Source: Candidatus Altimarinota bacterium
GTDB lineage: Bacteria; Patescibacteriota; Gracilibacteria; Peribacterales; Peribacteraceae
Direction of reading: 5' to 3'
Assembly (NCBI GenBank): GCA_963694385.1
Contig: CAVOCY010000002.1
Span: 2,208 to 66,207, forward strand
Length of the DNA stretch: 64,000 nucleotides
A program made the translations under genes and the position numbers. This document shows positions 8,798-62,625 of this stretch, piece after piece. Positions within the stretch are counted from its first letter, which is position 1, and each line of letters starts with the position of its first letter. The notes under the pieces were generated by a model. The model saw nothing but the letters and a program-made list of their open reading frames with translations. It did no database searches and was not told the origin of the DNA.

Positions 8798-10045
8798 TTA
8801 CTGTCGATATCCGTTTGTCTGTAAGTCATTTCCATTATTGATTACAGGCTCACGATTTGTAACTTGATCTTTTGTGTATTCACTCATTTCAATGTCGTGT
8901 GCAGCATGATATTGCTCTACTGCATCTATCTCATCTTTGCATTCAGTAATAATACCCCAGTCGTCAGGACTGATGGCATTCCACTTTTCCATTACTTCTA
9001 TTGATGCATGAATTTTGTCGGAGACCTCTTTTCCAACAGCTAAAATTGGCATGTTTGGCATTTTTCCACATTGAATAAGGAGAGCCGCTTCCCATGTTTC
9101 ATCATCAGTTCCAAAGCCACCAGGGAATGCAAATACTGCAGGGTGATTGGGATTATCGATGTGCTCATTTCCATTATGAGAAACACTGCGCCCCATAGCC
9201 GCAGAGACAAGTCCTCCCTTTCGTGGGGCAAAGTTTTTAATAGTAAGACAGAGTTGCAAGTGCTCATTCCATGACGCTTCAAAAGGGAGGTCAATACGAA
9301 CTCCTATGCTATGCATTTGTATTCTTGCTCTAAATATTGCAGCATGCACTTGGCTTTCATCTTCTGTATTTTCCGATGCAAGTGCCAATCGATCATTAAG
9401 GGTATTCATAATATTCCATCTTCCTTGCATTGCTCCATAATTTGCAGCCTCCATTATCCCTGGGCCTGCCCCTGTTATCACTTGTTCGGAGGTGCCATCT
9501 TCTCTGAGAGATCCTGTAACAATAGTTTCGTTAATCCAACGAGCGGAGTCGTATACATCAGAACCAGTAGCAGTACGTGCACTACCAAAGGAGACTATTC
9601 TTCCTCCGTTTTCATCGGGAAGATGATGCATAGCAGCAGTGGTATCTTGCAGTAAGCGAATGAGGTCTGGGGAAGAATATGTATCCGCTACTGTTGACCA
9701 TAATGTTTCTTGTTGATTAATAATATTTTTAATAGCGGCAATATTTTCCAGTGCACTTCTGCATTCCTCAGATTCTTGTCCTATCGCTTTTTCTATTCGT
9801 TCAAAATCAGAGGTATCTGGATAGTAGCCATCAAATCCAAGGCTACGCATTTGTGTAAGTTCTCCTCGAGCTATTGGCGAAAGAGCTTTCCATACTTCTC
9901 GATGACTGTAGATATCATGAAGCTGTATGAGAGATTGGTGCGCCACGATGTTATTTCTCTTTCCAGCATCTGCAAGCCTGTCGATAGTTCTGGTTGAAGC
10001 AGGTGGGGGAGAAGGCCGTAAAAACTGGTTTTTCTTACTATCCAT
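8798..10045 (-). CDS. LOG-family (TIGR00730-type) nucleotide 5'-monophosphate nucleosidase, PpnN-like long form
   Basis: GAGPGIMEAANYGA and PGGFGTDDETWEA (PGGxGTxxE) motifs, with a ~190-aa N-terminal extension like PpnN/YgdH. Confidence 0.8.
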   Translation of the reverse strand: MDSKKNQFLRPSPPPASTRTIDRLADAGKRNNIVAHQSLIQLHDIYSHREVWKALSPIARGELTQMRSLGFDGYYPDTSDFERIEKAIGQESEECRSALENIAAIKNIINQQETLWSTVADTYSSPDLIRLLQDTTAAMHHLPDENGGRIVSFGSARTATGSDVYDSARWINETIVTGSLREDGTSEQVITGAGPGIMEAANYGAMQGRWNIMNTLNDRLALASENTEDESQVHAAIFRARIQMHSIGVRIDLPFEASWNEHLQLCLTIKNFAPRKGGLVSAAMGRSVSHNGNEHIDNPNHPAVFAFPGGFGTDDETWEAALLIQCGKMPNMPILAVGKEVSDKIHASIEVMEKWNAISPDDWGIITECKDEIDAVEQYHAAHDIEMSEYTKDQVTNREPVINNGNDLQTNGYRQ

Positions 10046-13571: not shown

Positions 13572-14690
13572 ATGAAAAGACTTCTCGTTCCACTCTTTGC
13601 TCTCGGAATTCTTCTGAGCGCTTGTTCACCTGTTGCCGATGATGGAACAGGATCTATCAAAATTGGATATATTGGGCCTCTCACAGGAGAAGCTGCTTCT
13701 TATGGTAAAGACACACTTAACGGAGCAATGCTCGCTGTTAACGAAATTAACGAAGCTGGTGGTATTAATGGCCGCATGATCGAAATTATTGCTGAAGATG
13801 GACGCTGTACAGGTACAGATGCAGCTGGTGCTGCACAGAAACTTGTTAATGTTGATAAGGTTATCGCTATTATCGGAGGACAGTGTAGTGGTGAGACACT
13901 TGCTGCAGCTCCAATTGCAGAGGCTGCACAGGTGGTAATGATTTCTCCTATTAGCTCTAGTCCAGATGTTACTGTTGCTGGAGACTTTATCTTCCGTGAT
14001 TACCCAAGTGATGGATTAAAGACAAAGGCTATGGCTGGCTACTTTAAGAAAGAAGGAATTAACAAGATTGCAGCCATTACAGAGAACACAGACTTTGCAA
14101 TTGCATTCCGCGATGCGCTTAAAGAGAACATTGGTGATGCACTTGTCTTTGACGAAGTCGTAGAACCAGGGACAAAAGACTACCGTAGCCTTATGGCTCG
14201 CCTCAAAGACGAAGAGTTCGATGCATTCTTCCCGAACGGACAGACTCCAGCATCTATGGCTGCAATGATGGTACAACTTCGTGAGCAAGGGCTTACACAG
14301 CTCGCTATCTCTCACGATGTTGCACAAGATGCATCCATGTTTGAGATTGCTCCAGAGGCAGTAGAAGGATTATTGGCTATCGGAGTTCCTGCAGTTGATA
14401 GAGATTCTGACTTCGGACAAAAGTTCCTTGCTGAGCACGGAGAAGCACAAGGTGCTTTGTTCTTTGCAGCGCAGGCTTACGATGCAGCAAGACTCTTCGC
14501 TGATGCTATCGCAGAGGTAGGCACAGAAGGAGCTGCAATTCGTGATTATCTCTACGCTGTAGATTCATTTGATGGTGTTGTTGGTCCATTTGGATTTGAT
14601 GACAATGGTGATGTAACTGGCATTTCCTACGTACTATGGAAAGCTAGCAACGGAGCATTTACACAAGGTGAGGCAGTTCCTGTAAACTAG
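13572..14690 (+). CDS. Liv-type periplasmic substrate-binding lipoprotein
   Basis: MKRLLVPLFALGILLSAC lipobox, then IKIGYIGPLTGEAASYGKDTLNGAMLAVNEINEAGGING, which is typical of LivJ/K-family binding proteins. Confidence 0.85.
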   Translation: MKRLLVPLFALGILLSACSPVADDGTGSIKIGYIGPLTGEAASYGKDTLNGAMLAVNEINEAGGINGRMIEIIAEDGRCTGTDAAGAAQKLVNVDKVIAIIGGQCSGETLAAAPIAEAAQVVMISPISSSPDVTVAGDFIFRDYPSDGLKTKAMAGYFKKEGINKIAAITENTDFAIAFRDALKENIGDALVFDEVVEPGTKDYRSLMARLKDEEFDAFFPNGQTPASMAAMMVQLREQGLTQLAISHDVAQDASMFEIAPEAVEGLLAIGVPAVDRDSDFGQKFLAEHGEAQGALFFAAQAYDAARLFADAIAEVGTEGAAIRDYLYAVDSFDGVVGPFGFDDNGDVTGISYVLWKASNGAFTQGEAVPVN

Positions 14691-14697
14691 GAATTAG

Positions 14698-15579
14698 ATG
14701 ATTCAACTTATACTCAACGGACTTATCGCAGGTTCTCTCGCGGCACTCATGGCTGGAGGACTTGCTTTGGTATATGGAGTTCTAGGGGTGTTTAATATGG
14801 CACTTGGCCAGATGGCTTTAATAGGTGGATATTGCACATGGTGGCTGCATCAAGTTCTTCATTTGCCACTTGCACTGAGTATTGTTGGAGGCTTAACTAT
14901 TGCAGCATTTATTTCATGGATTGCCTTTGAGATCTTTATAAATCCTTTTTATAAGCGCCACAGGTTTCTTCCGCTGGTAACAACGATTGCACTCAGCATG
15001 ATATTAGATGGATTGATTTTGTTGTTCTTTGAAGAGAAACCTCGTGCAATCATGCCAGGGCTAAAGCACACATTTGAAGTATTTGGTGGTCGTATCAGTG
15101 TGGAGCAAGTAGCTCTGATTTCATTTACAGTCTTACTGATGATGGCATTGGCGTATGTTCTGCATTCCACAGCATTTGGACGAAAAATTCGTGCTGTTGT
15201 ACAGCATGATCATGCTGCAATGAGCTTAGGCATTCGTGCACCACTTTTGCATCGTTCAATATTTATTATGAGCGGAGTACTGGCAGGTCTTGGAGGAATT
15301 TACCTAGGAATAGACCAAAACCTTACTCCAGTCTTTGCATTTCCCATCACTATTAAAGCATATGCAGCTATTATTGCCGGAGGAAAAGGAAATATTTGGG
15401 GAGCGATTGTTTGTGCATATATAATTGCTCTATTAGAACAGTTCGTTGTTGGAGTGCATTGGTTCGGAGCATTTTATATCTCTGCTGGATACCAGCAAAC
15501 TGTCGCATTACTTTTTATTATTCTCTTCTTACTTTTTAGGCCTCAAGGCCTCTTTAGTTCGAAGGCACGCAGCGCATAA
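14698..15579 (+). CDS. livH: Liv-type ABC transporter permease (LivH-like)
   Basis: Polytopic membrane protein. It has MIQLILNGLIAGSLAALMAGGLALVYGVLGVFNMALGQ, typical of LivH. Confidence 0.85.
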   Translation: MIQLILNGLIAGSLAALMAGGLALVYGVLGVFNMALGQMALIGGYCTWWLHQVLHLPLALSIVGGLTIAAFISWIAFEIFINPFYKRHRFLPLVTTIALSMILDGLILLFFEEKPRAIMPGLKHTFEVFGGRISVEQVALISFTVLLMMALAYVLHSTAFGRKIRAVVQHDHAAMSLGIRAPLLHRSIFIMSGVLAGLGGIYLGIDQNLTPVFAFPITIKAYAAIIAGGKGNIWGAIVCAYIIALLEQFVVGVHWFGAFYISAGYQQTVALLFIILFLLFRPQGLFSSKARSA

Positions 15580-15581
15580 TT

Positions 15582-16436
15582 ATGGATTTCTATTGGCACA
15601 TTATCGCGATAGCATGCATGACCATTCCTCATGCGCTTGCCTATAACCTTGTCTTTGGAAAAGGGAAAATCTTACACTTCGGACCGATAGGGGTTTCTCT
15701 TGTAGCAAGTTATGCAGTAGTACTTACTGCGATGCACTCGGGTAGTTTTATTGCTGCTACGTTGGTTGGAATTCTTACAGTTGTACTACTATCTTTATTT
15801 TTAGCATGGCTTTCTTTGCGACTCGATCAAGATGCATTTGGAGTGATGACTATTGCAGTACATCTTTCTCTTCTTGCAGTTATCTTAAACTGGAATGGTC
15901 TGACGCGTGGCGCTCTAGGTATTCCTGGTGTTCCACGATTTAGCTTTCTTAGTTCTGTGCAAAGCTTTGCAATAGCAGCTGCAGTTATTTCTGCACTCTT
16001 TGTAATCGCATTACGATTGATCGACAAGAGTGCGTTTGGTCGTCAGTTGCAGGCTCTTGCAGAGCATGAGTGGCATGCAAAATCTTTAGGTATCAATAGA
16101 ACAAGGGCACATGTGATTGCCTTTCTCGTAGCTGGTGCTGGTGCGCTCGCCACTGCATTGCTTTTCCCTCAGTATTTAACATTCTTGCATCCGAATGACT
16201 ATCAGTATCCGTTCTTAGTATTCTTTATTACTATTGTAGTAGCGGGAAACCCAGGGTCTGTGTATGGAGTATTACTGTCTACAATTTTACTAACAGTACT
16301 TAAAGAGGCATTGCGGTTTTTACCTTTGCCTTCTGCGATGATGGGGCCGATTCGCCTTATTCTCTTTGGTGTAATCATGCTCGCTGTAGTCTATTGGCGC
16401 AGAGATACATTATTCCCAAAGCAGAGGAGTATTTAA
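15582..16436 (+). CDS. livM: Liv-type ABC transporter permease (LivM-like)
   Basis: Polytopic membrane protein placed directly after livH, with a GLTRGALGIPGVP motif. Confidence 0.85.
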   Translation: MDFYWHIIAIACMTIPHALAYNLVFGKGKILHFGPIGVSLVASYAVVLTAMHSGSFIAATLVGILTVVLLSLFLAWLSLRLDQDAFGVMTIAVHLSLLAVILNWNGLTRGALGIPGVPRFSFLSSVQSFAIAAAVISALFVIALRLIDKSAFGRQLQALAEHEWHAKSLGINRTRAHVIAFLVAGAGALATALLFPQYLTFLHPNDYQYPFLVFFITIVVAGNPGSVYGVLLSTILLTVLKEALRFLPLPSAMMGPIRLILFGVIMLAVVYWRRDTLFPKQRSI

Positions 16437-16441
16437 GAATA

Positions 16442-16470
16442 TTGACAAATATACAAAAACAATCTAATTT
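16442..16470 (+). promoter_or_regulatory. candidate promoter TTGACA-N17-TAATTT
   Basis: A perfect -35 at 16442-16447 and a weak -10 at 16465-16470, in the 297-nt spacer before pyrD. Confidence 0.25.
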
Positions 16471-16733
16471 AGTAATTGATGAAAGCAGAAAATCCAGGAG
16501 TACCGCAGGGGCAGGGTTCAGAGACAGAGTCATCAGATCAGATGACTCCAGTTCTAAATTTTCTAGCAATCAGAAGTATGCGTGTATTTAAAGAAGAGGG
16601 ACCCGAAGCTGGGTGGAGAAATGTTAGTGAAGTTATGCGATCTATTATTATAGCAACACATGAAAAAATGTTAGACAAGCAAGCTGAATGATCTAGTCGC
16701 ACACACCATCGGTTTACGGTACGATAACCATCG

Positions 16734-17678
16734 ATGAACCTCTCCCAAACAGTACTCGGCATCACCTTCGAAAATCCGACGGTGTTGGCTTCTGGTATTT
16801 TGGGAATTACGTCGTCCACATGGAAGGATGTTGCAAAAAAAGGAGCAGGAGGTATTACGACTAAATCTCTTTGGGCTAAAGAGCACAAGGGACATCCAAA
16901 CCCAACAATTATCGAAACAGATCATTGGATGCTTAATGCTGTAGGACTTCCTGACGCAGGTCCCGAGAAGGCAAAAGAAGAAATAAGTGACTACATGAAA
17001 GATCATCCAGTTCCACTGATCGCGAATATCGTAGCTGGACTTATCGAAGACTTTGCAAAGACTGCAGAGGAGCTAGCACCACTTGAACCTGATGCATTCG
17101 AAGTAAATATCAGCTGTCCAAATGTCGAAGATGAATTCGGAAAGCCATTCGCGTGCAGTGCACCTAATGCAGCTAAGGTTACCGCAGCAGTAAAGAAGGT
17201 GGCGGGAGACATTCCGATATTTGTAAAGCTATCGCCGAACGTTGATAACATCGGAGAGATAGCAAAAGCTTGCCAAGCAGCTGGAGCTGATGGGTTCACG
17301 ATGATCAACACTGTTGGCCCTGGTATGGCCATAGACTTACGCAGTCGCATGCCGATACTTGCCAATAAAGTTGGAGGGCTATCAGGTCCTGCAATAAAAC
17401 CCATTGCGGTGAAGTGCATTGCTGATGTTTATGCTGCTACCGATGGGAAGTGTCCGATCATCGGAACAGGAGGAGTGTATACCGGAGAAGATGCTTTGGA
17501 ACTGATGCTTGCTGGGGCAACACTTATTGGAATCGGATCTGCAATATCGCGGCATGGCGCAGAGGTCTTTGCAGAAGTTTGTGAGGGCATGCAGTACTGG
17601 TGTACGAATGAAGGAGTTGATGATATTGGTTCTATGGTAGGAGGAATGCATAAAGAACTTGCTTCCCGCAGTACATAA
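16734..17678 (+). CDS. pyrD: dihydroorotate dehydrogenase, class 1B catalytic subunit
   Basis: GITFENPTVLASGILG, NISCPNV, MINTVGP and GTGGVYTGEDALE. The stop overlaps the pyrK ATG (TAATG). Confidence 0.93.
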   Translation: MNLSQTVLGITFENPTVLASGILGITSSTWKDVAKKGAGGITTKSLWAKEHKGHPNPTIIETDHWMLNAVGLPDAGPEKAKEEISDYMKDHPVPLIANIVAGLIEDFAKTAEELAPLEPDAFEVNISCPNVEDEFGKPFACSAPNAAKVTAAVKKVAGDIPIFVKLSPNVDNIGEIAKACQAAGADGFTMINTVGPGMAIDLRSRMPILANKVGGLSGPAIKPIAVKCIADVYAATDGKCPIIGTGGVYTGEDALELMLAGATLIGIGSAISRHGAEVFAEVCEGMQYWCTNEGVDDIGSMVGGMHKELASRST

Positions 17679-18517
17679 TGTCTACGATTTCTCTTCAGTC
17701 TCGGCTTCCAAAGACGTATCGCATTAAGGCGATAACGCAGGAGACAGAAATGGTACGCACCTACACATTTGATGGGTCACTTGGGGCAAAGCCTGGTCAG
17801 TTTCTGATGCTGTGGCTTCCGGGAGTAGATGAAAAACCTTTTTCTGTAGCATTTGATGACGGATCAGAAACCAAAATTACTTTTTTTGCAGTAGGGCCGA
17901 TGAGTGAAGCACTGTCGAAATCCAAAGTAGGAGATCTTGTAGGGCTTCGAGGACCATTTGGAACATCATACGAATGGGAAGCAGGAGATCATATTGTGCT
18001 TGTTGCCGGTGGATATGGTGCAGCACCAATGTACTTTGTAGCATCGGAGGCAGTGAAACACGGTTGTACGCTTGAAGCGATTGTAGGAGCACGAGGGAAA
18101 GAACATTTGTTGTATCTCAAAGAACTCGAGTCACTTAAACACGTATCGCTTCATGTCTCTACTGATGATGGATCGATGGGACACAAGGGTTATAACACCG
18201 AAGTACTCGATCAACTCTTGGAAGCTGCTGGAAGTCCAGATGTGAAAGACCCTCCTATTGATAACATATTTGCCTGTGGCCCAGAGATGATGTTGAAATC
18301 GGTAATGACTGTCTCAAAAAAACATGGAGTTCCCTGCCAGCTTTCACTAGAGCGCTATATGAAATGTGGCTTTGGTATTTGTGGGAACTGTGTGATGGAC
18401 CCAACAGGAGCTAGGCTTTGCATAGAAGGCCCAGTGGTTTCTGGAGATGTCTGTGCAAAACTAACCGAGTTTGGTAAATACCACCGAGATGATATCGGCA
18501 AGAAGCATGAGTTCTAA
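17678..18517 (+). CDS. pyrK: dihydroorotate dehydrogenase electron-transfer subunit (FAD/2Fe-2S)
   Basis: Ferredoxin-reductase-like fold with a C-terminal CGFGICGNC cluster. It is translationally coupled to pyrD. Confidence 0.9.
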   Translation: MSTISLQSRLPKTYRIKAITQETEMVRTYTFDGSLGAKPGQFLMLWLPGVDEKPFSVAFDDGSETKITFFAVGPMSEALSKSKVGDLVGLRGPFGTSYEWEAGDHIVLVAGGYGAAPMYFVASEAVKHGCTLEAIVGARGKEHLLYLKELESLKHVSLHVSTDDGSMGHKGYNTEVLDQLLEAAGSPDVKDPPIDNIFACGPEMMLKSVMTVSKKHGVPCQLSLERYMKCGFGICGNCVMDPTGARLCIEGPVVSGDVCAKLTEFGKYHRDDIGKKHEF

Positions 18518-18925
18518 TTAAAATCGTATTGTCCGTTCTATCCAAATAACATCCATCTGCTTTCGTGATGTACGTGTCTGTTTTTTTGCTGCAGGCTGCT
18601 TTCGTACTACAACAGGAACACTTCGACATTGCTCAGTGCAGGCAGGCTGCTCATCATTTTGTCGAATGGTCCAGAGTGCATGTAGTCCAAATCCAATAAG
18701 CATCATCAGCATTCCAAATGCTAGCACACCTGCTGGATTACTAGATTCAATTGCTGCTGCAGGAAGTACTACTTCTTGATTAATCCACATAGGTTCTCCG
18801 GCCTGTTGTGTACCAAGGTATGCTCCTTGGTTAGTCGCACTAGCACTCAAAGACATTTGAGAGCCTATAGTAACCACGATGGCACCTAGAGCGATGAGCG
18901 ATGTACCTAATGTTTGTTTTGACAT
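18518..18925 (-). CDS. hypothetical membrane protein (signal or anchor, one internal TM, basic C-terminal tail)
   Basis: ORF with an N-terminal hydrophobic segment and an internal helix VLAFGMLMMLIGFGLHALW. I recognised no family. Confidence 0.55.
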   Translation of the reverse strand: MSKQTLGTSLIALGAIVVTIGSQMSLSASATNQGAYLGTQQAGEPMWINQEVVLPAAAIESSNPAGVLAFGMLMMLIGFGLHALWTIRQNDEQPACTEQCRSVPVVVRKQPAAKKQTRTSRKQMDVIWIERTIRF

Positions 18926-55010: not shown

Positions 55011-56912
55011 ATGGCAAGTGTCGCGAGCATTCAGTTGGCCCCAGTTCTCGACCGACTCGGAGAGTCCGGAGCATCGTATGATACAAAGAAATTAGGTGAG
55101 GCATTTGCTGTTGCTCAGTCGTCATTTAGTGATGCACCACACTGGACTGGTGAAAGTATTATCAATCATACATTAGGTATTCTGGAGGAGCTTGCTCCTT
55201 TCGAACCTGACGAAGATACCGTTCTTGCATGCTTGCTTCATCACGTACTTGAACAAAAGGTGATGACACTTGTAGAGCTAGAGCAGCAATTTGGTCCAAA
55301 GGTACGCTCTCTTGTTTCGGGTATTCATCTTCTTTCCCATATCACACTAGAGGGGCGACGCAGATCTATAGAAGATTTACGTATTATGCTTCTCTCTGTT
55401 TCTGATGACATTCGTGTACTACTTGTATGCTTATGTGATCGTGCGCACTGCCTAAAGTGTGTTGGTACTATGGATGCTGCTCAAGCAAAGCGCCTCTCAC
55501 AAGATGTGCTTCAACTCTTTGCACCTGTTGCAGCAAGGCTTGGTATCTACTCACTAAAGCAAAGCTTAGAGACTGCAGCGTTTCCTGTAGTGTATGAACA
55601 TGATAGTGAGCGCATAGTGGAGCAGTTGAATCGTGTCTATCAAGAGCATCCAAACTTCTTGCAGGAGTCGTGTAAGACGCTGCAGGATTTTTTGGAAGAT
55701 CAAGGTATTGATGCTGCTGTTGACTCTCGGGAGAAGCAGGCATTTAGCATCTTTCAAAAGATGCGCCGTAAGTCTCTTACAAATATTGAGGACATATACG
55801 ATCTCTTTGCGTTGCGTGTTATCGTAAATAGTGAAGAGGATTGCTATAGAGTATTGGGTCTATTACACCAACTTGGCCGCCCACTTGCCAATCGCTTTAA
55901 AGACTATATTGCGTTTCCAAAACCAAATGGTTACCAAAGTTTGCACACGACATTGGCGGGATTTGCTGACCTTCCTCAAAATTGCATGATGGAGGTACAG
56001 GTGCGTACCAGCAAAATGCACAGAGAGGCACAGTTTGGTGTGGCTGCGCATTGGAGTTACAAAGAGGTAGGTGCAACTGCTCGTGCACTCGAAAAAGTAC
56101 AGCTGCATTCTATGTTGGCAGGCCAAGAGCCTGTCGATGATGAGCAAGAAGGTCAAACTTTTGCGGATCACATCTTTGTCCTGACTCCTCGTGGAGATAT
56201 TGTGGAACTTCCAGAAGGTGCAACACCGTTAGACTTTGCCTTTAAGGTGCACACAGATCTTGGTCTATTGTTTCGCAGTGCAAACGTAAATGGTTCTATT
56301 GTTTCTCTAGATTATCAACTAAAGAATGGAGATGTTATCGAAATCCAAAAGCACAGTAGTCCACAACCTTCTACACAATGGATGCAGATGCTGCGCATGG
56401 CGAGTAGCCGTAGTAAGTTGCGACGCTATTTGTATGCACAAGAAAGGCCACATCTTATCTCCGAAGGAAGAGATCTTGTAAATGCCCAGCTAAAGAAGAG
56501 GGGTTTGCCACCGCTTACAACAGATCTTTCGGTCTTGCGAGTGTGTGACGGTGAAACGTTGGGGTTCACACAAAGAGAAGATCTGCTGATGAAGATTGGA
56601 CAAGGAGCTGAGCGTGTTTCGTCACTACCTGGTCGATTGGGACTGATCTCTAAAAAGGAGATTATGATAGATACGCAGCAAAAGAAAGCAGAACCTTCTA
56701 AGATTATCCATTCAAAGAGTACTGCTATTGGTATTGATGGAGGCATATCTATGCCTATTCAGTATGCTAAATGTTGTGGCCCACAAGAGTGGCCTCATGC
56801 TTCATTGGTTGGAAATATTAATCGTGAAGGAAAAGTCATGATCCACAGGGATCATTGTCGAATGTTTCAAAATACGAACCCAGAGCGAAGAATAAAAGTG
56901 TGGTGGAAATAA
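55011..56912 (+). CDS. rel: bifunctional (p)ppGpp synthetase/hydrolase, RelA/SpoT (Rel) family
   Basis: HD domain (LLHHVLE), synthetase domain (DLFALRVIV, GYQSLHTTL) and TGS domain (IFVLTPRGDIVELPEGATPLDFAFKVHTDLG). Confidence 0.93.
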   Translation: MASVASIQLAPVLDRLGESGASYDTKKLGEAFAVAQSSFSDAPHWTGESIINHTLGILEELAPFEPDEDTVLACLLHHVLEQKVMTLVELEQQFGPKVRSLVSGIHLLSHITLEGRRRSIEDLRIMLLSVSDDIRVLLVCLCDRAHCLKCVGTMDAAQAKRLSQDVLQLFAPVAARLGIYSLKQSLETAAFPVVYEHDSERIVEQLNRVYQEHPNFLQESCKTLQDFLEDQGIDAAVDSREKQAFSIFQKMRRKSLTNIEDIYDLFALRVIVNSEEDCYRVLGLLHQLGRPLANRFKDYIAFPKPNGYQSLHTTLAGFADLPQNCMMEVQVRTSKMHREAQFGVAAHWSYKEVGATARALEKVQLHSMLAGQEPVDDEQEGQTFADHIFVLTPRGDIVELPEGATPLDFAFKVHTDLGLLFRSANVNGSIVSLDYQLKNGDVIEIQKHSSPQPSTQWMQMLRMASSRSKLRRYLYAQERPHLISEGRDLVNAQLKKRGLPPLTTDLSVLRVCDGETLGFTQREDLLMKIGQGAERVSSLPGRLGLISKKEIMIDTQQKKAEPSKIIHSKSTAIGIDGGISMPIQYAKCCGPQEWPHASLVGNINREGKVMIHRDHCRMFQNTNPERRIKVWWK

Positions 56913-56916
56913 AAGC

Positions 56917-57020
56917 GTGAGAGGAAACCGTAGGCTTCCTTTCACGGACTCTCCTTCCCTTCAAAGGAATCACTCAAAGCGGGGGACCTGCTCTTCGCGA
57001 TGGGGTTTGTTATATAGGTT
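56917..57020 (-). ncRNA. copy A of a ~105-nt structured repeat element (3' of tig); its terminal hairpin plus U-tract acts as a terminator
   Basis: The 75-column core is about three quarters identical (58 of 75 columns by my hand alignment) to 61237-61310. The hairpin at 56917-56945 is followed on the minus strand by GCTTTTATTT. Confidence 0.5.
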
Positions 57021-57045
57021 ACGTGACTGGTCGTATTCAGTTTCC

Positions 57046-58323
57046 TTACTCCAACATTCCTGCGAGCGCCTTTTCTACTTTCTTCTGCCACTTAAGTTGC
57101 TCATAAGCTTGAGCACCCTTTTTATAAGCGTCCTCTACTTCTTTGCGTTGGTCCGGAGTTGCTTGGCCTAGGAATCCTTCTACGATTTGATCCATTTCTT
57201 CATCTGTTACATCAATAGATTTTTCTTCGACAAGCTTTTGCATTCCAAGCCGTAGCGTAAGGCGTTGCTCTGCTTGTTTCTTCATGTCTGCAAGGACCTC
57301 TTCTGGCTTCTTACCAGACTGGGTCATCCATTGCTCCATGTTCATTCCTTGTTGTCCAAGTTGCTGTTCGAATTCACCAACCATCTGACGGGTTTCTTCG
57401 TCAATTAGCTCGGCAGCTAGTTCTACTTTTGTGCATTTTGTTAGCTCATCCATAAGTACACGTTCTCTTCGTTGGCTTTCTACAGATAGTTCTTGCTGTT
57501 GCATTGATTCTTTAATCTGCTTTTTAAAGTCTTCAACAGACTCTGCTTGCAGTTCTTTTTTAGCAAATTCATCAGTAAGTTCTGGCTTTGAGATTTCTTC
57601 TATTTTAATAACAGTAACGTGGAATGTTACAGGTTTGTTCTGTAACTGTTCTGCGTGGTACTTCTCTGGGAAGGTAAGTGTGAACGCTTTTTCTTCTCCC
57701 TTCTTTACATCTTTAAGGTTATCTTCAAATCCAGGAATGAGTACTTTAGAACCAATTTCTACCTGATGTCCTTCTGTGCGAATGCCTTCAATTTCTTTAT
57801 GTTCTTCATCTGTTCCGTGAAAGTTCATTGTAATAAGATCTCCTTCTTTTGCTGCGCGATCTACTTCAGTCATTTTTTTGTTCTTATCGAGCACAAAGTC
57901 GATCATCTTTTGGAGTTCTTTTTCATCTACTTCTGGTTCCTTCTTTTCAATCTTGATCTTATCAACACCCTTAAGCGTTACCTCTGGCTTCTCTATGAAG
58001 ACAATCTTCAATGTAAGAGGCTCTCGGCTTACTGCTTCTACCTGTGGGTGAATAATAGGCTTGATATCTTGTTCTTTAATAAGCTTCTCAAATGCAGGTG
58101 GTAAAATGTGGTGTACCGTTGCTTCGAATAGCTTTTGAGGATCAATCTTTTCCTTTGCTTGATCCATAGGAACGTTTCCTTTGCGAAATCCAGGTAGCTC
58201 AATTTCACGACTAAGCTCGTGGAGAGCTTTTTGCTCTGCAGGAGCAATTTCTGCTTCTGTAAAGGTGACAGTACATTCTACGCGTCCTCCTTTAAGCCGT
58301 TTGACGTCTGGACCATCTGACAT
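57046..58323 (-). CDS. tig: trigger factor
   Basis: LPGFRKGNVP ribosome-binding motif, a central FKBP-like domain, and a C-terminal chaperone arm. Confidence 0.93.
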   Translation of the reverse strand: MSDGPDVKRLKGGRVECTVTFTEAEIAPAEQKALHELSREIELPGFRKGNVPMDQAKEKIDPQKLFEATVHHILPPAFEKLIKEQDIKPIIHPQVEAVSREPLTLKIVFIEKPEVTLKGVDKIKIEKKEPEVDEKELQKMIDFVLDKNKKMTEVDRAAKEGDLITMNFHGTDEEHKEIEGIRTEGHQVEIGSKVLIPGFEDNLKDVKKGEEKAFTLTFPEKYHAEQLQNKPVTFHVTVIKIEEISKPELTDEFAKKELQAESVEDFKKQIKESMQQQELSVESQRRERVLMDELTKCTKVELAAELIDEETRQMVGEFEQQLGQQGMNMEQWMTQSGKKPEEVLADMKKQAEQRLTLRLGMQKLVEEKSIDVTDEEMDQIVEGFLGQATPDQRKEVEDAYKKGAQAYEQLKWQKKVEKALAGMLE

Positions 58324-58365
58324 TGGCAAGAGCTTACAGGAAGTGTTGTGTGTGGTAAGCGATTT

Positions 58366-59259
58366 TTATGCCTTTTTCTTCCAGTATACGAGGAGCGGAG
58401 TTGCGAGGAAGAGAGAGCTGTATGTTCCGATTATGGCTCCGGTAATGAGTGTCAGGACAAACCAGCGAATACTCTCAGACCCTAGAACAAAGAGGCAGCT
58501 TAACATGATCAATGTAGAGACTGATGTGTTGATAGAACGTGTAATACTCTGGCTAAGGCTTTTATCTGCAATTTCAGAGAATTCTTCTTTGCGACCTTGC
58601 TCGGAGAGGTTATCGCGAATACGGTCGAAAATAACGATAGTGTCGTTAACGGAATATCCAAGAATAGTGAGGAGCGCTGTAATAAAGAGGGTATCGAACT
58701 CAAATGTAGTAACTTGGCTAATAATAATAAAGATACCGACGGTAATCAGCACATCGTGAATTAGTGTGACAACCGCAATGATTCCAAATCTCCAAGGGGA
58801 GAGCTTGCGTGGGATTTTTCTAAAGGCAAAAGCAATGTAGAGCACGATGGCAATGGCAGCGATGCCAAGAGCCCAGAAACTTCTCTTTTTGAGGGATTCT
58901 CCAACTGTTGGCCCAATTGTTGTGAATTGTAGCTCTTTTATTTGTCCGAGTTCGCTGCGAAGATGTAGCTGTAGCGCAATGTGCTCATCGTTACTGATAT
59001 CGCGCATTCGCATGAATACGGTGTTACTCTTTGTCTTTGAGAGCGCTACGTTTCCAAGTGGATTTTCGCTTTCAAAGGTAGCTAGAGCGTCTTCGACGTT
59101 ACTTTTATCAATATCATCTGGAAGGCGAATTTCTATCATGGTTCCACCAGTAAAGTCGATACTCATCTTAGGCCCTGGCACAAATAGAAGCACTACACTG
59201 GTAAGCACGAGTGCGCTGGAAAGCCCTAGGAAGAATTTGGCTGGTTTGAGTAATGACAT
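58366..59259 (-). CDS. secF: protein translocase subunit SecF
   Basis: IDFTGGT, LIHDVLITVG and GYSVNDTIVIFDRIRDN. Confidence 0.92.
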   Translation of the reverse strand: MSLLKPAKFFLGLSSALVLTSVVLLFVPGPKMSIDFTGGTMIEIRLPDDIDKSNVEDALATFESENPLGNVALSKTKSNTVFMRMRDISNDEHIALQLHLRSELGQIKELQFTTIGPTVGESLKKRSFWALGIAAIAIVLYIAFAFRKIPRKLSPWRFGIIAVVTLIHDVLITVGIFIIISQVTTFEFDTLFITALLTILGYSVNDTIVIFDRIRDNLSEQGRKEEFSEIADKSLSQSITRSINTSVSTLIMLSCLFVLGSESIRWFVLTLITGAIIGTYSSLFLATPLLVYWKKKA

Positions 59260-59282
59260 ATCGGTAGGGGAGAGTAATGGTT

Positions 59283-60626
59283 TTATCGGAGGAGATCCAG
59301 TAGTTGTAATGGAATTCTAGATGATCCTATAGTTGTAGAGCGTATTTTTCCATCAAGGTTGGATACAAAATACACTGAGCCAGTGCCGAATTTGGAGGAA
59401 ACCTCTTTTTGCTGCAATCCCAGAGAAGGATAAAACGGTTCTAGCTGGGAAAGATCAAGTAGCGTCCTCGTGGTTACGCGTTCTTGATGTACGTTACGTT
59501 GATGTTGTATGGCATGGGCAACATCTGCACGTGTTGTTCCAATGATAAATGCATTTGATTGTGTAGCAGTGACCATTTCTTTGTGGCTTCCTGCAAGACT
59601 AGTGCTACGTACTAGCCAGCCCTCTTCTGCGCGTTGGTTGCGTTCGATCATTGTAGGGTCATGGCGAATATCAATAGAGCTAAAACGCTTATCCAATACA
59701 CGTTTTGTTATTTTTGATGATGGAAGCGTGCGTTCGTATTCTGCGTGTAGCCTGTCGAGTATGCTGTGTAGAGATTTTGTTTCTTGCATGGATCCACTAA
59801 GCAGTATATTCAAAACTCCTCCTGATGCACTGAGTTGTACGCTTGAAGGTTCTTTTAGAAGTGGAAGTATGTCATATTGCAGACTGATATTTTTACCGTA
59901 GGTATGTACTGCTTCTTGTAGTAATCCTTCGAGGACAATTGCATCATCTTTCTGAAGACTTTGTTGTAAAGAACGGAATGATGCTTGTCCATTACCAAAT
60001 GCGAAGACAGCAAAACTGTCTGGCATTTCTGGAATCGTGGTCGGTGCTTTCTTTGCAATGAGTGCATCACTGATGTGGCGTACTGAAATATCATTATCGA
60101 TATACCAAAGTGCAACGCCAGAGCTTTTTGCAACAAGAAGTGCTTTGAGTACATCAGCAAATAAAGACGCACCTTGTGGAAATAGAGAGGCACTGAGAAA
60201 TGCCCATTCTGTCTCTGTGCTCGCATGTGTTTTTAGTGTGGAAAATGTAACGTCTGAGCTTAATGGCTGCTCGTGTATTCCTATTAGGTCACGTGCTTCT
60301 ACATTATCTACCTCAAGGATATAGGGGCCAATAGAGCCATCACTTTGTTTGGCATCTCGGATAAATTGCACTGCAGCAGCACCATCTGGAGTGGTAAGGA
60401 TAACGATTGCCTCTGCTTCGTTACTCTTTATGTCAGAGAACTCTTTTAGAGATCTTTCAGATGGATGGAAGAGGATTGCCTGAACCTCAGAGACTGGGAC
60501 AAAGTCTGCAGGGTCTCTACCAAAGACTCCCACGCTTCGAATAACACCAAACAGGGCTGCAATTATCAAAGCACAGCCTGCCATGGCAGTGACAATGAGA
60601 ATAGATGTGCGAAGCAAGTGATTCAT
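59283..60626 (-). CDS. hypothetical single-pass membrane-anchored protein (447 aa) at the position where secD is usually found
   Basis: One N-terminal TM helix (ILIVTAMAGCALIIAALFGVI) and no C-terminal helices. There is no GLDLxGG-type SecD motif. Confidence 0.55.
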   Translation of the reverse strand: MNHLLRTSILIVTAMAGCALIIAALFGVIRSVGVFGRDPADFVPVSEVQAILFHPSERSLKEFSDIKSNEAEAIVILTTPDGAAAVQFIRDAKQSDGSIGPYILEVDNVEARDLIGIHEQPLSSDVTFSTLKTHASTETEWAFLSASLFPQGASLFADVLKALLVAKSSGVALWYIDNDISVRHISDALIAKKAPTTIPEMPDSFAVFAFGNGQASFRSLQQSLQKDDAIVLEGLLQEAVHTYGKNISLQYDILPLLKEPSSVQLSASGGVLNILLSGSMQETKSLHSILDRLHAEYERTLPSSKITKRVLDKRFSSIDIRHDPTMIERNQRAEEGWLVRSTSLAGSHKEMVTATQSNAFIIGTTRADVAHAIQHQRNVHQERVTTRTLLDLSQLEPFYPSLGLQQKEVSSKFGTGSVYFVSNLDGKIRSTTIGSSRIPLQLLDLLR

Positions 60627-60785
60627 AGTATGGCCATATCTTACATTAAGGAGAGAATAGGGAAGTTCTCTGTATAACAAATGTATTCATAACATCGTTC
60701 TACTCTACGTCTATTTGGTTTGATTGCGGAGATAGTCAAGACCACGTAAGATAGTCTGATTTGCTTCGAAAGACGTAAATCAGAT

Positions 60786-60819
60786 ACAAAAACACACAAA
60801 CGACGGAGGACGCTCCGTC
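60786..60819 (-). terminator. intrinsic terminator (minus strand) closing the 0.5-kb non-coding stretch after the TPR gene
   Basis: On the minus strand: GACGGAG-CGTC-CTCCGTC followed by GTTTGTGTGTTTTTGTATC. Confidence 0.65.
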
Positions 60820-61203
60820 ACCCCACACAAATACTGATCCTTAAAAAACACCAAAACAAACAGTAAAAGAAACTGGGAGGGCAATGTGCATGAAATCGTG
60901 CTTACTGCCCTCTCTGCTCTGTGATGTCGTCTTATAGGTGAGAGGTTGCTCTATAAGATGCTTCCCTTAATTCTCTATGGTTCCCTTAGCTCACGCTTTG
61001 TCTTGGAGCCTGTCCCAGAGGACTCGTCGGGTAGCGAGTATAAATGAGATACCGTAACAAGGCAGGAGTTCGGGATTACCTCATCTCACCTTGTCTTTCA
61101 CAAGCTCGCGACTCCCTTCTCTTAGAATAGTTGCAGAAAGCTACCGAAGGACATTCAAATCAAAGAAGGCCAGAGTGTATAAGTTCTGGTCTTCTTTGCC
61201 ATT

Positions 61204-61310
61204 CATGAGGGACAAACCTGCGGTTTTTCCCTCATGGGCTCCCTTTTCCCTTTCAAAGGGATCACTACGCGCGGGGGACCCACGCTTCGTGATACGGTTT
61301 TTATATAGGG
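61204..61310 (-). ncRNA. copy B of the ~105-nt structured repeat element (3' of the TPR gene)
   Basis: It has the same core as 56946-57020. The terminal hairpin at 61204-61236 (CATGAGGGA...TCCCTCATG) differs in sequence from copy A but keeps the pairing. Confidence 0.5.
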
Positions 61311-61323
61311 TGAGGTTATTTTT

Positions 61324-62625
61324 TTATAGTGCTAACAATTTCTCCTTCACTCCGGGAAGGGAGGGGTTCATTTCCAATGCTTTTTCGAGGGCGGCTTTTG
61401 CCTCTTCCTTTTTTTCGAGTTGCAGAGCTACTGTTCCGAGCAGCTCGAATGCTTTTGCGTTTTTAGGCCAAAGCTCTGTTGCAAGTTCGGCCTTTTCCAT
61501 AGCTGCTTCTGCACGGCCTAGTGCTGCTGCTGCCGTGACAAATCCTTGATAGCTTTCGAACGTAGCATTTGGGTCATTTGTTAGTGCTTCGTATTGATCT
61601 AAAGCAAGTCCTGCATTCCCTATCTCTAACGCATATCTTGCAATCAGTCTTCGTACTTCGCCCTGTGGAACGAATCCATTTGTTAGTGCGTACTCAAAGA
61701 AGGTGATGGAATTTTGGTATTCATGAAGATCTGCATACGACCTTGCAAGGAAGTATTGGATCTCTGGTTTTTGCGGGTCTAGTGAATACGCTTGCTCTAG
61801 AGAAGCCAATGCTTGCTCTGGTCGTTCGGTAGTGAGTTCGCAGTATCCTTGGACGACCCATGCATCGCGGTAATCATCTTTTGATGAAGTGACTTGTATT
61901 AGTAATGGCAAAGCCAATTCACACTCTTGTACTTGGGCAAGTGCCCGAGAGACGAGTGTTATAAGATGAATATCAGAACCACTTGGGAAGAGGTCAAATT
62001 CATCGTATGCCGCGTTGAGTGTGCGTGCATAGCTTCGTAGTACAGGATCCCATCCGTTGATCGTTAGGGCTAATTCTTGAATAGCACGTTGGTGGCTTCC
62101 TTGAATAATGGAAAGTAGTGCAAGCCCGTAATGCTTTTGAGGAGAATCCTCTGCACTCTCTAGGACTTTGCTTGCATCAACTAATTCTCCTGCTCGCAAT
62201 TTAATAATGACTTCGAGTAGCAATACATCTTCGGGTCTAGCACCTGCACTTTTAAGCTGCTTTAGTGTGGAGCGTACCCCTTTCATATCTCGTCTTTGAA
62301 GTTGCGCCTTAGCAAGTTTCCGTAGAGATGGTAAACCTCCACCACTTTTTACAGACTTCTCGTATTGCTCTTGTGCTTCTTGCCATTCTCCGCGAAGGGC
62401 GAGGATATCTCCCTGTCGTAGGAATAATAAAGATGCGTCATCACTATCAAAGGGGATTTCGCTTATTGTTGGCATTGGTGCTCCTAGTAATTCTGTATCA
62501 GCAAATTGCTGTCCTCCAAGTTGTAATGTGGATTGTGTGAGCTGCCACCATAGAAAAGACATCAATAGGCCTGCACATATTGAGGCTAGTAAGACTGGAG
62601 CGATAATACGAGTAGGAATTTTCAT
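61324..62625 (-). CDS. TPR-repeat protein with N-terminal TM anchor
   Basis: N-terminal helix IIAPVLLASICAGLLMSFLWW, then multiple 34-residue TPR-like units (for example NAKAFELLGTVALQLEKKEEAKAALEKALEMNPS). Confidence 0.75.
   Translation of the reverse strand: MKIPTRIIAPVLLASICAGLLMSFLWWQLTQSTLQLGGQQFADTELLGAPMPTISEIPFDSDDASLLFLRQGDILALRGEWQEAQEQYEKSVKSGGGLPSLRKLAKAQLQRRDMKGVRSTLKQLKSAGARPEDVLLLEVIIKLRAGELVDASKVLESAEDSPQKHYGLALLSIIQGSHQRAIQELALTINGWDPVLRSYARTLNAAYDEFDLFPSGSDIHLITLVSRALAQVQECELALPLLIQVTSSKDDYRDAWVVQGYCELTTERPEQALASLEQAYSLDPQKPEIQYFLARSYADLHEYQNSITFFEYALTNGFVPQGEVRRLIARYALEIGNAGLALDQYEALTNDPNATFESYQGFVTAAAALGRAEAAMEKAELATELWPKNAKAFELLGTVALQLEKKEEAKAALEKALEMNPSLPGVKEKLLAL

Follow-up and report, generated by a model that had tools for sequence, protein, structure and literature searches.

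The 64-kb window analyzed here, a stretch of contig CAVOCY010000002.1 from a Peribacteraceae genome, carries two copies (A and B) of an element of about 105 nucleotides (nt) on its minus strand, which belong to a well-supported family of structured RNAs of the Peribacteria. No family in Rfam 15 matched the element, either at the gathering score or at E ≤ 10, in agreement with the earlier note on this DNA, whose author had recognized no RNA family, and a full-text literature search found no lineage-specific regulatory, structured or small RNA for Peregrinibacteria or Peribacteria. From the gene arrangement, the element appears always to lie at the 3′ end of a transcription unit. We favor, with moderate confidence, a reading in which it forms a discrete, stable 3′-terminal RNA, either a small RNA (sRNA) or a 3′ domain, which would end at or just before a terminator and would have a putative trans-acting partner.

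Coordinates are positions in the window, and L-numbers designate loci of relatives. Copies A (56917-57018) and B (61204-61309) shared both orientation and fold on the minus strand, which is the reading strand of the element and also that of the genes that precede them, tig and a TPR-repeat protein gene. The shared core had been counted by hand at 58 identical columns out of 75; global alignment of the core gave 58 out of 77. A 29-nt pattern with 24 specified bases matched only A and B in the window, with no match in 100 shuffles, and an nhmmer profile of A plus B gave E about 1e-30 for each of them. Read on the minus strand, both copies displayed in order CCUAUAUAA, the helix P1 (AUCRC ... GUGAU) with an apical stem (P1a, loop GG-UCC-CC), CCUUUGAA(A)GGGAA..GGAGAG.CC, and a strong hairpin. 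The terminal hairpins described in the earlier note were present in both copies, as was the tail GCUUUUAUUU behind that of copy A. Their description as unrelated did not hold, since both correspond to a family-wide helix, P3, with the common apex GGAA(A/G)CC-NNN-GGUUUC. The reported difference in the inner helix, ATCGC/GTGAT in A and ATCAC/GTGAT in B, is a change from G-U to A-U on the minus strand, and direct reading of the apical stem revealed one fully compensatory change, A-U to C-G, between A and B. Copy A starts 27 nt past the tig stop codon (the 25 nt given previously is the distance to position 57020), and copy B 14 nt past the TPR stop codon, not 15.

The fold was supported by covariation in alignments of 7-16 sequences, some of them closely related. 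RNAalifold applied to the MAFFT alignment returned four helices: P1 (5 bp), P1a (7-8 bp, with a variable tip bearing 30-60-nt insertions in L022b, L024 and L033), P2, and P3 (14 bp). That pairing is kept while sequence changes, as first seen between A and B, was borne out across the family. In the unfitted MAFFT alignment, 88.5% of the cells were standard pairs, compared to 75.3% in shuffles and 41-51% in slid-register controls, and both sides had changed in 18 of the 33 pairs, a value reached by none of 500 shuffles. The eleven-sequence alignment gave 91.7% of cells paired, with both sides changed in 22/33 pairs. The signal was carried by P1, P1a and P3; the weak P2, a pairing of CCUUU with AAAGG, was formed in 75-79% of cells, and the possible CCUUU/AAGGG pairing of copy A is weakly supported. 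Compensatory changes were visible between orthologous copies at the B site, where P1 reads AUCAC/GUGAU in the window, GUUGC/GCAAC in L093 and GUGCC/GGCAC in L099. The minus strand folded with z-scores of -3.3 and -6.2, versus -1.1 and -3.7 for the plus strand, by comparison with shuffles, and P1a and P3 together contained 10 G.U pairs versus 3 A.C mismatches. The purine-rich conserved linker and the U-tract behind copy A also fit the gene strand.

Three unpaired parts were conserved. The internal loop between P1 and P1a reads 5′-GAA / 5′-UGGA, with the variants GUA in copy B, UUGA in copy A and UGCA in L020; from its sequence it may resemble tandem-G.A or loop-E-type loops. The linker, of about 23 nt, follows the consensus ACCUUUGAGGGAAAGRGAGYCC, also rendered as CCUUUGAGGGAAAGGAGAGYCC, that is CCUUU, then GAGGGAAAGGAGAG, then YCC. 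The third part is the P3 apex, GAAACC-NNN-GGUUUC. A kink-turn reading of the internal loop (CGAAG/CUGGAG) was rejected: the position that follows GAA covaries with its partner in Watson-Crick fashion (G-C seven times, C-G twice; alignment columns 17/92), so that the loop is not a canonical kink-turn, and it consists of 5′-GA(A) opposite 5′-(U)GGA instead of a three-nucleotide bulge plus GA/AG. Two coding readings were also discarded. In frames opened by a RUG at the base of P3, sequence reading gave lengths from 5 to more than 60 codons, with ACG in place of the start codon in L023 and an in-frame UAG in the GUA-loop variants; the open reading frames (ORFs) located 5′ of the element were not homologous to each other, which excludes a conserved small protein upstream. 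The three-base loop of P3 was GUA or GCA in most copies (GCA at 61219-61221 in copy B) and UA in L093. In copy A (56930-56932) and in L098 (7024-7122) it was the reverse complement UAC, which looks like a small hairpin-loop inversion or reflects the near-palindromic nature of the apex.

The family was traced in about 1 Mb of related loci, drawn from tig-centred loci from 80 genomes and then from six closer marine relatives, using the nhmmer profile of A plus B and two covariance models (CMs), one built from seven MAFFT-aligned copies and the second from eleven. The nhmmer profile found diverged copies in Peribacteria whose tig is about 50% identical. Altogether 16 full and 2 truncated copies were found in about 15 Peribacteria genomes, which sets aside the possibility, raised in the earlier note, that only two copies exist and that relatives lack them. 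The full copies are window A, window B, L093, L094, L098 (two), L099, L020, L021, L022 (two), L023, L024, L033, L034 and L044; the truncated copies, in L013 and L095, keep only the linker and P3. Copies were 60-80% identical. In about 25 other loci of Peribacteria or of the Candidate Phyla Radiation (CPR), no copy was detected by nhmmer or the covariance models. An exact degenerate pattern made from A and B alone, which is too specific, gave no match in a collection of genome contigs and five in metagenome contigs, all of them chance matches in high-GC coding sequence. With a family-consensus pattern, two matches with weak CM scores, consistent with chance, were obtained in viral contigs. In one viral locus, L097 (giant-virus MAG contig GVMAG-M-3300027963-59_000001, IMG/VR), inverted copies of AAGGGAAGGGGCGUCCGGGGAAACCGUAGGUUUCC at 8960-9050 (minus) and 9296-9352 (plus) flank an array of tandem repeats of about 24 nt; the CM score is weak (15 bits) and the number of matches fits chance, and the likeness of AAGGGAAGGGGCGUCCGGGGAAACCGUAGGUUUCC to the element linker and P3 apex extends beyond the bases demanded by the search pattern. 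The range of the family is a part of the uncultured Peribacteria.

The occupied sites differ in age. The B site, which extends from the TPR gene to the hairpin opening a large noncoding block, holds the element in the marine loci L093, L094, L098 and L099 and in the freshwater or groundwater loci L020, L022a, L023, L024, L033 and L044. The element was lost there in L014, L095 and L100, and is truncated in L013, where the TPR stop codon abuts the linker. The site is ancient and has been inherited vertically. A second old site lies before a convergent tRNA-Cys gene: L021 has a full copy, L098 keeps P1/P1a with a different 3′ hairpin, L095 has a partial copy, and the window lineage has a plain hairpin only. 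At the tig/relA junction no copy A was present in L013, L014, L093, L094, L095, L098, L099 and L100, in which the two stop codons are 1-50 nt apart. Judged by these junctions, copy A is a recent paralogous gain of the window lineage. Compared to the empty sites of L013 and L014, the filled site showed an insert of about 130 bp without flanking direct repeat and whose ends are not inverted repeats; the 27-nt 5′ flank of copy A is unique in the window. The make-up of copy A is mixed, with a B-like P1/P1a and a P3 apex GCC-UAC-GGU as in the L093 and L098 variants, an indication that copies have recombined or that the donor lay outside the window. A mosaic likeness was also seen elsewhere, the 5′ halves being alike in window A/B and the 3′ halves in L022a/b.

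On the minus strand of the window, a PfkB-family kinase gene, a 204-aa ORF and the TPR gene precede copy B, followed by about 450 nt of noncoding sequence, a 465-aa ORF, secF, tig and copy A, beyond which lies the convergent plus-strand relA/spoT gene (Table 1). The tig protein is identical to that of genes on marine metagenome contigs, and its nearest named relatives are Candidatus Peribacter / Peribacteraceae (Peregrinibacteria, CPR). No hairpin was found between the tig or TPR stop codon and the element. With no terminator in between, co-transcription with tig and the TPR gene would be expected in the window. Among the relatives, the upstream neighbor can be the TPR gene, unrelated small ORFs, an Eco57I-like restriction-modification (R-M) gene, or a divergent HTH gene. 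Since the gene upstream is divergent in L022 and L023, the element there is not its 3′ untranslated region (UTR), and any expression of the element in these loci must start from a separate promoter. On the 3′ side, a convergent gene faces copy A (relA) and the copies of L021, L095 and L098 (tRNA-Cys). All B-type copies are followed, at 3-10 nt, by a terminator-like hairpin, and this spacing is kept whatever the gene upstream, with nothing inserted between the two. The spacer that separates the TPR gene from the element or large RNA is an insertion hot spot: it houses a different, unrelated accessory gene in almost every lineage, always upstream of the element.

Table 1. Position of the features of copies A and B, of their surroundings in the window, and of the spacer between the TPR gene and the element or large RNA in the window and relatives. 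SD, Shine-Dalgarno.
Feature	Position	Strand	Remarks
Copy A, A/U-rich 5′ flank CCUAUAUAA	57010..57018	-	family equivalent AAUAAUCC / AAAUACUC
Copy A, P1/P1a domain	56969..57001	-	P1 and P1a covary across the family
Copy A, P1	AUCGC 57001-56997 with GUGAU 56973-56969	-	
Copy A, internal loop	GA 56996-56995 opposite GA 56975-56974	-	
Copy A, P1a AGAGCAGG-UCC-CCCGCUUU	56994-56976	-	
Copy A, linker UCCUUUGAAGGGAAGGAGAGUCC	56946..56968	-	pyrimidine CCUUU, then purine-rich SD-like tract
Copy A, P3 hairpin GUGAAAGGAAGCC-UAC-GGUUUCCUCUCAC	56917..56945	-	
Copy A, tail GCUUUUAUUU	56907..56916	-	overlaps relA/spoT stop codon on the plus strand
Copy B, A/U-rich 5′ flank CCUAUAUAA	61301..61309	-	14 nt past the TPR stop codon
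Copy B, P1/P1a AUCAC-GAA-GCGUGGG-UCC-CCCGCGC-GUA-GUGAU	61261..61293	-	
Copy B, linker CCCUUUGAAAGGGAAAAGGGAGCC	61237..61260	-	
Copy B, P3 hairpin CAUGAGGGAAAAACC-GCA-GGUUUGUCCCUCAUG	61204..61236	-	no U-tract behind
A-tract hairpin, then U-tract AAAGAAGaCCAGA...UCUGGcCUUCUUUGAUUU	61157..61197	-	6 nt 3′ of copy B
Conserved noncoding RNA candidate, about 300-350 nt	60850..61197	-	between copy B and 465-aa ORF/secF/tig; not part of the element
tig (trigger factor)	57046..58323	-	upstream of copy A
TPR-repeat protein gene	61324..62625	-	upstream of copy B
relA/spoT-family gene	55011..56912	+	convergent with tig; stop codon 4 nt from copy A P3
Spacer, window	61310-61323		
Spacer, L020	6217-6578		small ORF
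Spacer, L022	817-6653		5.7-kb insert between two element copies: two treble-clef zinc-finger genes and an HTH (transposase-like) gene
Spacer, L024	3639-6780		Eco57I-like R-M gene and degenerate tandem element
Spacer, L033	4771-5113		small ORF
Spacer, L094	6993-7444		small ORF
Spacer, L095	6506-7124		
Spacer, L098	6668-7023		small ORF
Spacer, L100	6398-6935		23S_rRNA_IVP-family (bAvd-like) gene

At the Rfam gathering score the whole window contained one tRNA only and seven related loci contained tRNA only; at E ≤ 10, the segments examined (window 56500-61700, L022 6600-7450, L020 6540-7320) gave scattered sub-threshold matches that were inconsistent between genomes. The signature of an intrinsic terminator, a G+C-rich hairpin followed by a U-tract, was found in copy A only, where P3 (56945-56917) precedes GCUUUUAUUU; a simple terminator scanner overlooked this hairpin because of its stem mismatches. 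It is plausible that P3 and its tail constitute an intrinsic-terminator-like end of tig. P3 of copy B is devoid of a U-tract, which stands behind the next hairpin (61197-61157); this hairpin looks like a terminator and also forms the conserved 5′ end of the adjoining large RNA block. The earlier note had offered three options for the element: a conserved 3′-UTR or terminator module, a small RNA gene with its own promoter, and a structured repeat similar to repetitive extragenic palindromes (REP) or miniature inverted-repeat transposable elements (MITE). The structured RNA and the 3′-end location were retained, and the element may be either a 3′-UTR module or an independent sRNA gene; the promoter reading of the -10-like box and the repeat lost ground. 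The -10-like box CCTATATAA, located at 57018-57010 in A and 61309-61301 in B, is not conserved, other members having AAUAAUCC, AAAUACUC and similar sequences, and the A-rich boxes of the members lie at no consistent -10 distance. A repeat of the REP or MITE kind is disfavored by the presence of only two copies in 64 kb and by the absence of target-site duplications and of terminal inverted repeats, on account of which the element is not MITE-like.

The large noncoding block adjoining copy B is a candidate for a new large noncoding RNA or a long operon leader. It opens with the hairpin AAAAAAGACCAGA..UCUGGYCUUUUUU and contains the invariant blocks GCUAUC, CUGCCUUG, UCUUGUUUAUCCUCG.AACCCGACGAG and ACGACAUCRCAGAGCAGAGAGG; in the marine clade, a terminator-like hairpin is found at its end. 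RNAalifold predicted 38 pairs, 20 of which showed compensatory changes. The block was observed at the same position in L013, L014, L017, L018, L020-L025, L027, L028, L030, L031, L033, L034, L038, L041, L043, L044, L093, L094 and L098, and in many genomes it is present while the 105-nt element is missing. No Rfam match was obtained in three genomes, even at E ≤ 10, which led us to discard RNase P, tmRNA, SRP and 6S RNA as identities; likenesses to RNase P motifs noticed by eye did not hold up.

We propose that the element would be transcribed with the upstream gene, or, behind a divergent gene, from a promoter of its own, and would persist as a discrete, stable 3′-terminal RNA of about 100-150 nt. 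The last helix would be the terminator itself in copy A, or would lie 3-10 nt before the A-tract/hairpin/U-tract terminator in copy B and its orthologues. Asymmetric purine internal loops with sheared G.A pairs are typical protein-binding sites. A binding surface could be made up of the internal loop together with the unpaired purine tract and the apex of P3, and the element probably binds a trans-acting partner, putatively an RNA-binding protein or a pyrimidine-rich RNA. Several points weigh against this proposal. The ends, the stability and the expression of the RNA are predictions made from sequence. Among all copies, a U-tract behind P3 exists in A only. No sigma-70 consensus promoter was found upstream of A or B, and the A-rich box is too close to P1 to be the -10 box of a P1-containing transcript. 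The duplex energy of P2 was no better than that of cross-genome pairings in a permutation test (p = 0.25), and a terminator/antiterminator switch between linker and P3 was rejected, with p = 0.29 for the linker with the 3′ strand of P3 and p = 0.14 for CCUUU with the 5′ strand, versus permuted pairs. The copy counts (2 in the 64-kb window, 0-2 per 21-kb locus) cover tig-centred loci and are not per-genome totals. Lastly, the mosaics and the copies that flank inserted genes make a role in DNA-level recombination possible.

Among the alternatives, it is unlikely that the B element serves as the opening domain of a 5′ leader or attenuator, in which a promoter, the element, the hairpin, the RNA of about 300 nt, the 465-aa ORF, secF and tig would succeed each other and the element would control read-through, copy A being then a functionless or secondary duplicate. 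The position of every B-type element immediately before the A-tract/U-tract hairpin, with insertions upstream and never between, speaks for such a leader, and the linker resembles the 5′ strand of P3 closely enough for alternative pairings to be energetically possible (about -10 kcal/mol). However, no sequence-specific covariation supports these pairings (p 0.14-0.29 by permutation), the element is missing beside the large RNA and the operon in L014, L017, L018, L021, L027, L028, L030, L038 and L043, and the P3 apex is the most conserved part, unlike the expression platform of a riboswitch. Moreover, copy A and the copies at the tRNA-Cys site (L021, L095, L098) face convergent genes, so that nothing is downstream to be regulated. 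An element that is a mere terminator, in the form of a compound, partly bidirectional intrinsic terminator and 3′-end stabilizer of the upstream mRNA, would be well placed directly past stop codons and between convergent genes (copy A, tRNA-Cys site); P3 of copy A with its U-tract is terminator-like, and L013 and L095 keep just the linker and P3, right behind the stop codon. We judge this very unlikely, considering that terminators are normally devoid of a loop, apex, linker and GA internal loop conserved across genomes so divergent, that P3 has a U-tract in no copy other than A, and that a distinct canonical terminator hairpin comes after the B-type copies.

A doubtful possibility is a DNA-level or selfish element, either MITE- or REP-like or an att/attC-like recombination site at the hot spot, the fold being incidental or that of single-stranded DNA. 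The lineage-specific insertion of about 130 bp at copy A, the L022 copies on both sides of the 5.7-kb insert with genes for two treble-clef zinc-finger proteins and one transposase-like HTH protein, the degenerate tandem copy beside the inserted R-M gene in L024, the changing accessory ORFs of the spacer, the mosaic copies suggestive of recombination, and the P3 loop found in both orientations, GUA and UAC, can all be accommodated in this manner. On the other hand, the element has no terminal inverted repeats and its insertion at copy A no target-site duplication, the 64 kb contain only two copies, and an integrase or RAYT-like gene is absent from the vicinity; by Pfam, no recombinase domain was found in the ORFs scanned beside the copies and at the spacer. 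No R″/R′ core sites of attC (RYYYAAC ... GTTRRRY) were seen on reading the P3 and P1 arms, and the likeness to attC is confined to the succession of a variable ORF and the element at one hot spot. The same locus is filled across a deep divergence, up to a tig about 50% identical, with compensatory substitutions between orthologous copies and strongly conserved unpaired nucleotides, and the bias for G.U over A.C favors an RNA read from one strand. We also consider it quite unlikely that the element and the RNA of about 300 nt are two parts of one Peribacteria RNA system placed before the secF-tig export/folding operon and acting as a mimic or decoy of the ribosome or of a ribosome factor. Such a system would use an intramolecular pair made of the anti-SD-like CCUUU and the SD-like GGGAAAGGAG, together with a RUG at the P3 base; further paralogues, copy A among them, would have been seeded at other 3′ ends. 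The 8-mer ACCGUAGG of the P3 apex is presumably also found in helix 45 of 16S rRNA.

Three further loci deserve mention. The 465-aa ORF (59283-60680, minus) immediately precedes secF and occupies the place expected for secD, but it matched no Pfam or NCBIfam family; its orthologues in relatives are also without a Pfam entry on record. The mechanically called ORF of ribosomal protein L10 (53560-54444, minus) has 294 aa and a TTG start, with the L10 domain from about residue 76; the gene calls on identical contigs give 222 aa, and the long N-terminus is probably an ORF-calling artefact. In L098, a gene of 1599 aa with a weak ART-PolyVal domain and a 124-aa ORF lie between dtd and rplJ (13740-18539, minus), and both are missing from the window and the other relatives.

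The CPR, or Patescibacteria, have tiny genomes. The element gives this group a new family of structured RNAs, for which a working covariance model, a consensus fold and defined syntenic sites are now available and which can be searched for in metatranscriptomes at once, and the work on it led to the second, larger RNA candidate next to it. If the element does bind a specific protein or the ribosome, it would be among the first RNA regulators described for the large uncultured CPR radiation; if it is a stabilizer or terminator module only, it would still be an example of how reduced genomes pass on, truncate and duplicate such modules.

Compared to known systems, the element would work most like the sRNAs that derive from a 3′ UTR and share its terminator, or like the multi-copy sRNA families, and is homologous to none of them. 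With the REP/BIME, Correia and MITE-like repeats it shares the form of a short structured intergenic repeat behind genes, the appearance at a new site (copy A) and possible effects on 3′-end stability; it differs by the lack of terminal inverted repeats and target-site duplications, a low density, covarying helices, conserved loops and linker, and syntenic sites across a class-level clade. With a riboswitch or attenuator the element has in common a structured domain that precedes a hairpin, to which copy A adds a U-tract, and the linker could in principle compete with the 5′ strand of P3. However, the element is at 3′ ends, often with nothing downstream, and the putative platform, the P3 apex, is its most conserved part. 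As in loop E/sarcin-ricin (bulged-G) motifs and kink-turns, an asymmetric purine loop with a potential sheared G.A stands beside a Watson-Crick stem; compared by sequence, the loop is only partly like the AGUA/GAA bulged-G consensus. The multi-copy sRNA families include Qrr1-5, the csRNAs and the cyanobacterial Yfr2-5. The element is without a conserved promoter or regulator-binding box, and its conserved tract is purine-rich and SD-like, whereas that of the csRNAs is anti-SD-like; it has in common with these families the paralogous copies of about 100 nt, the conserved unpaired motifs and the variable stems in which pairing is kept. The 3′-UTR-derived or terminator-sharing sRNAs of enterobacteria, such as CpxQ, SroC and DapZ, have no sequence or Rfam relationship with the element, which belongs to a CPR lineage and, in contrast to them, is found at several sites and kept behind unrelated or divergent upstream genes. 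In the same way as these sRNAs, it follows a stop codon immediately, in the orientation of the gene, and its end coincides with the intrinsic terminator of that gene; the first stem is preceded by A/U-rich single-stranded sequence, and the stems are separated by a conserved unpaired tract.

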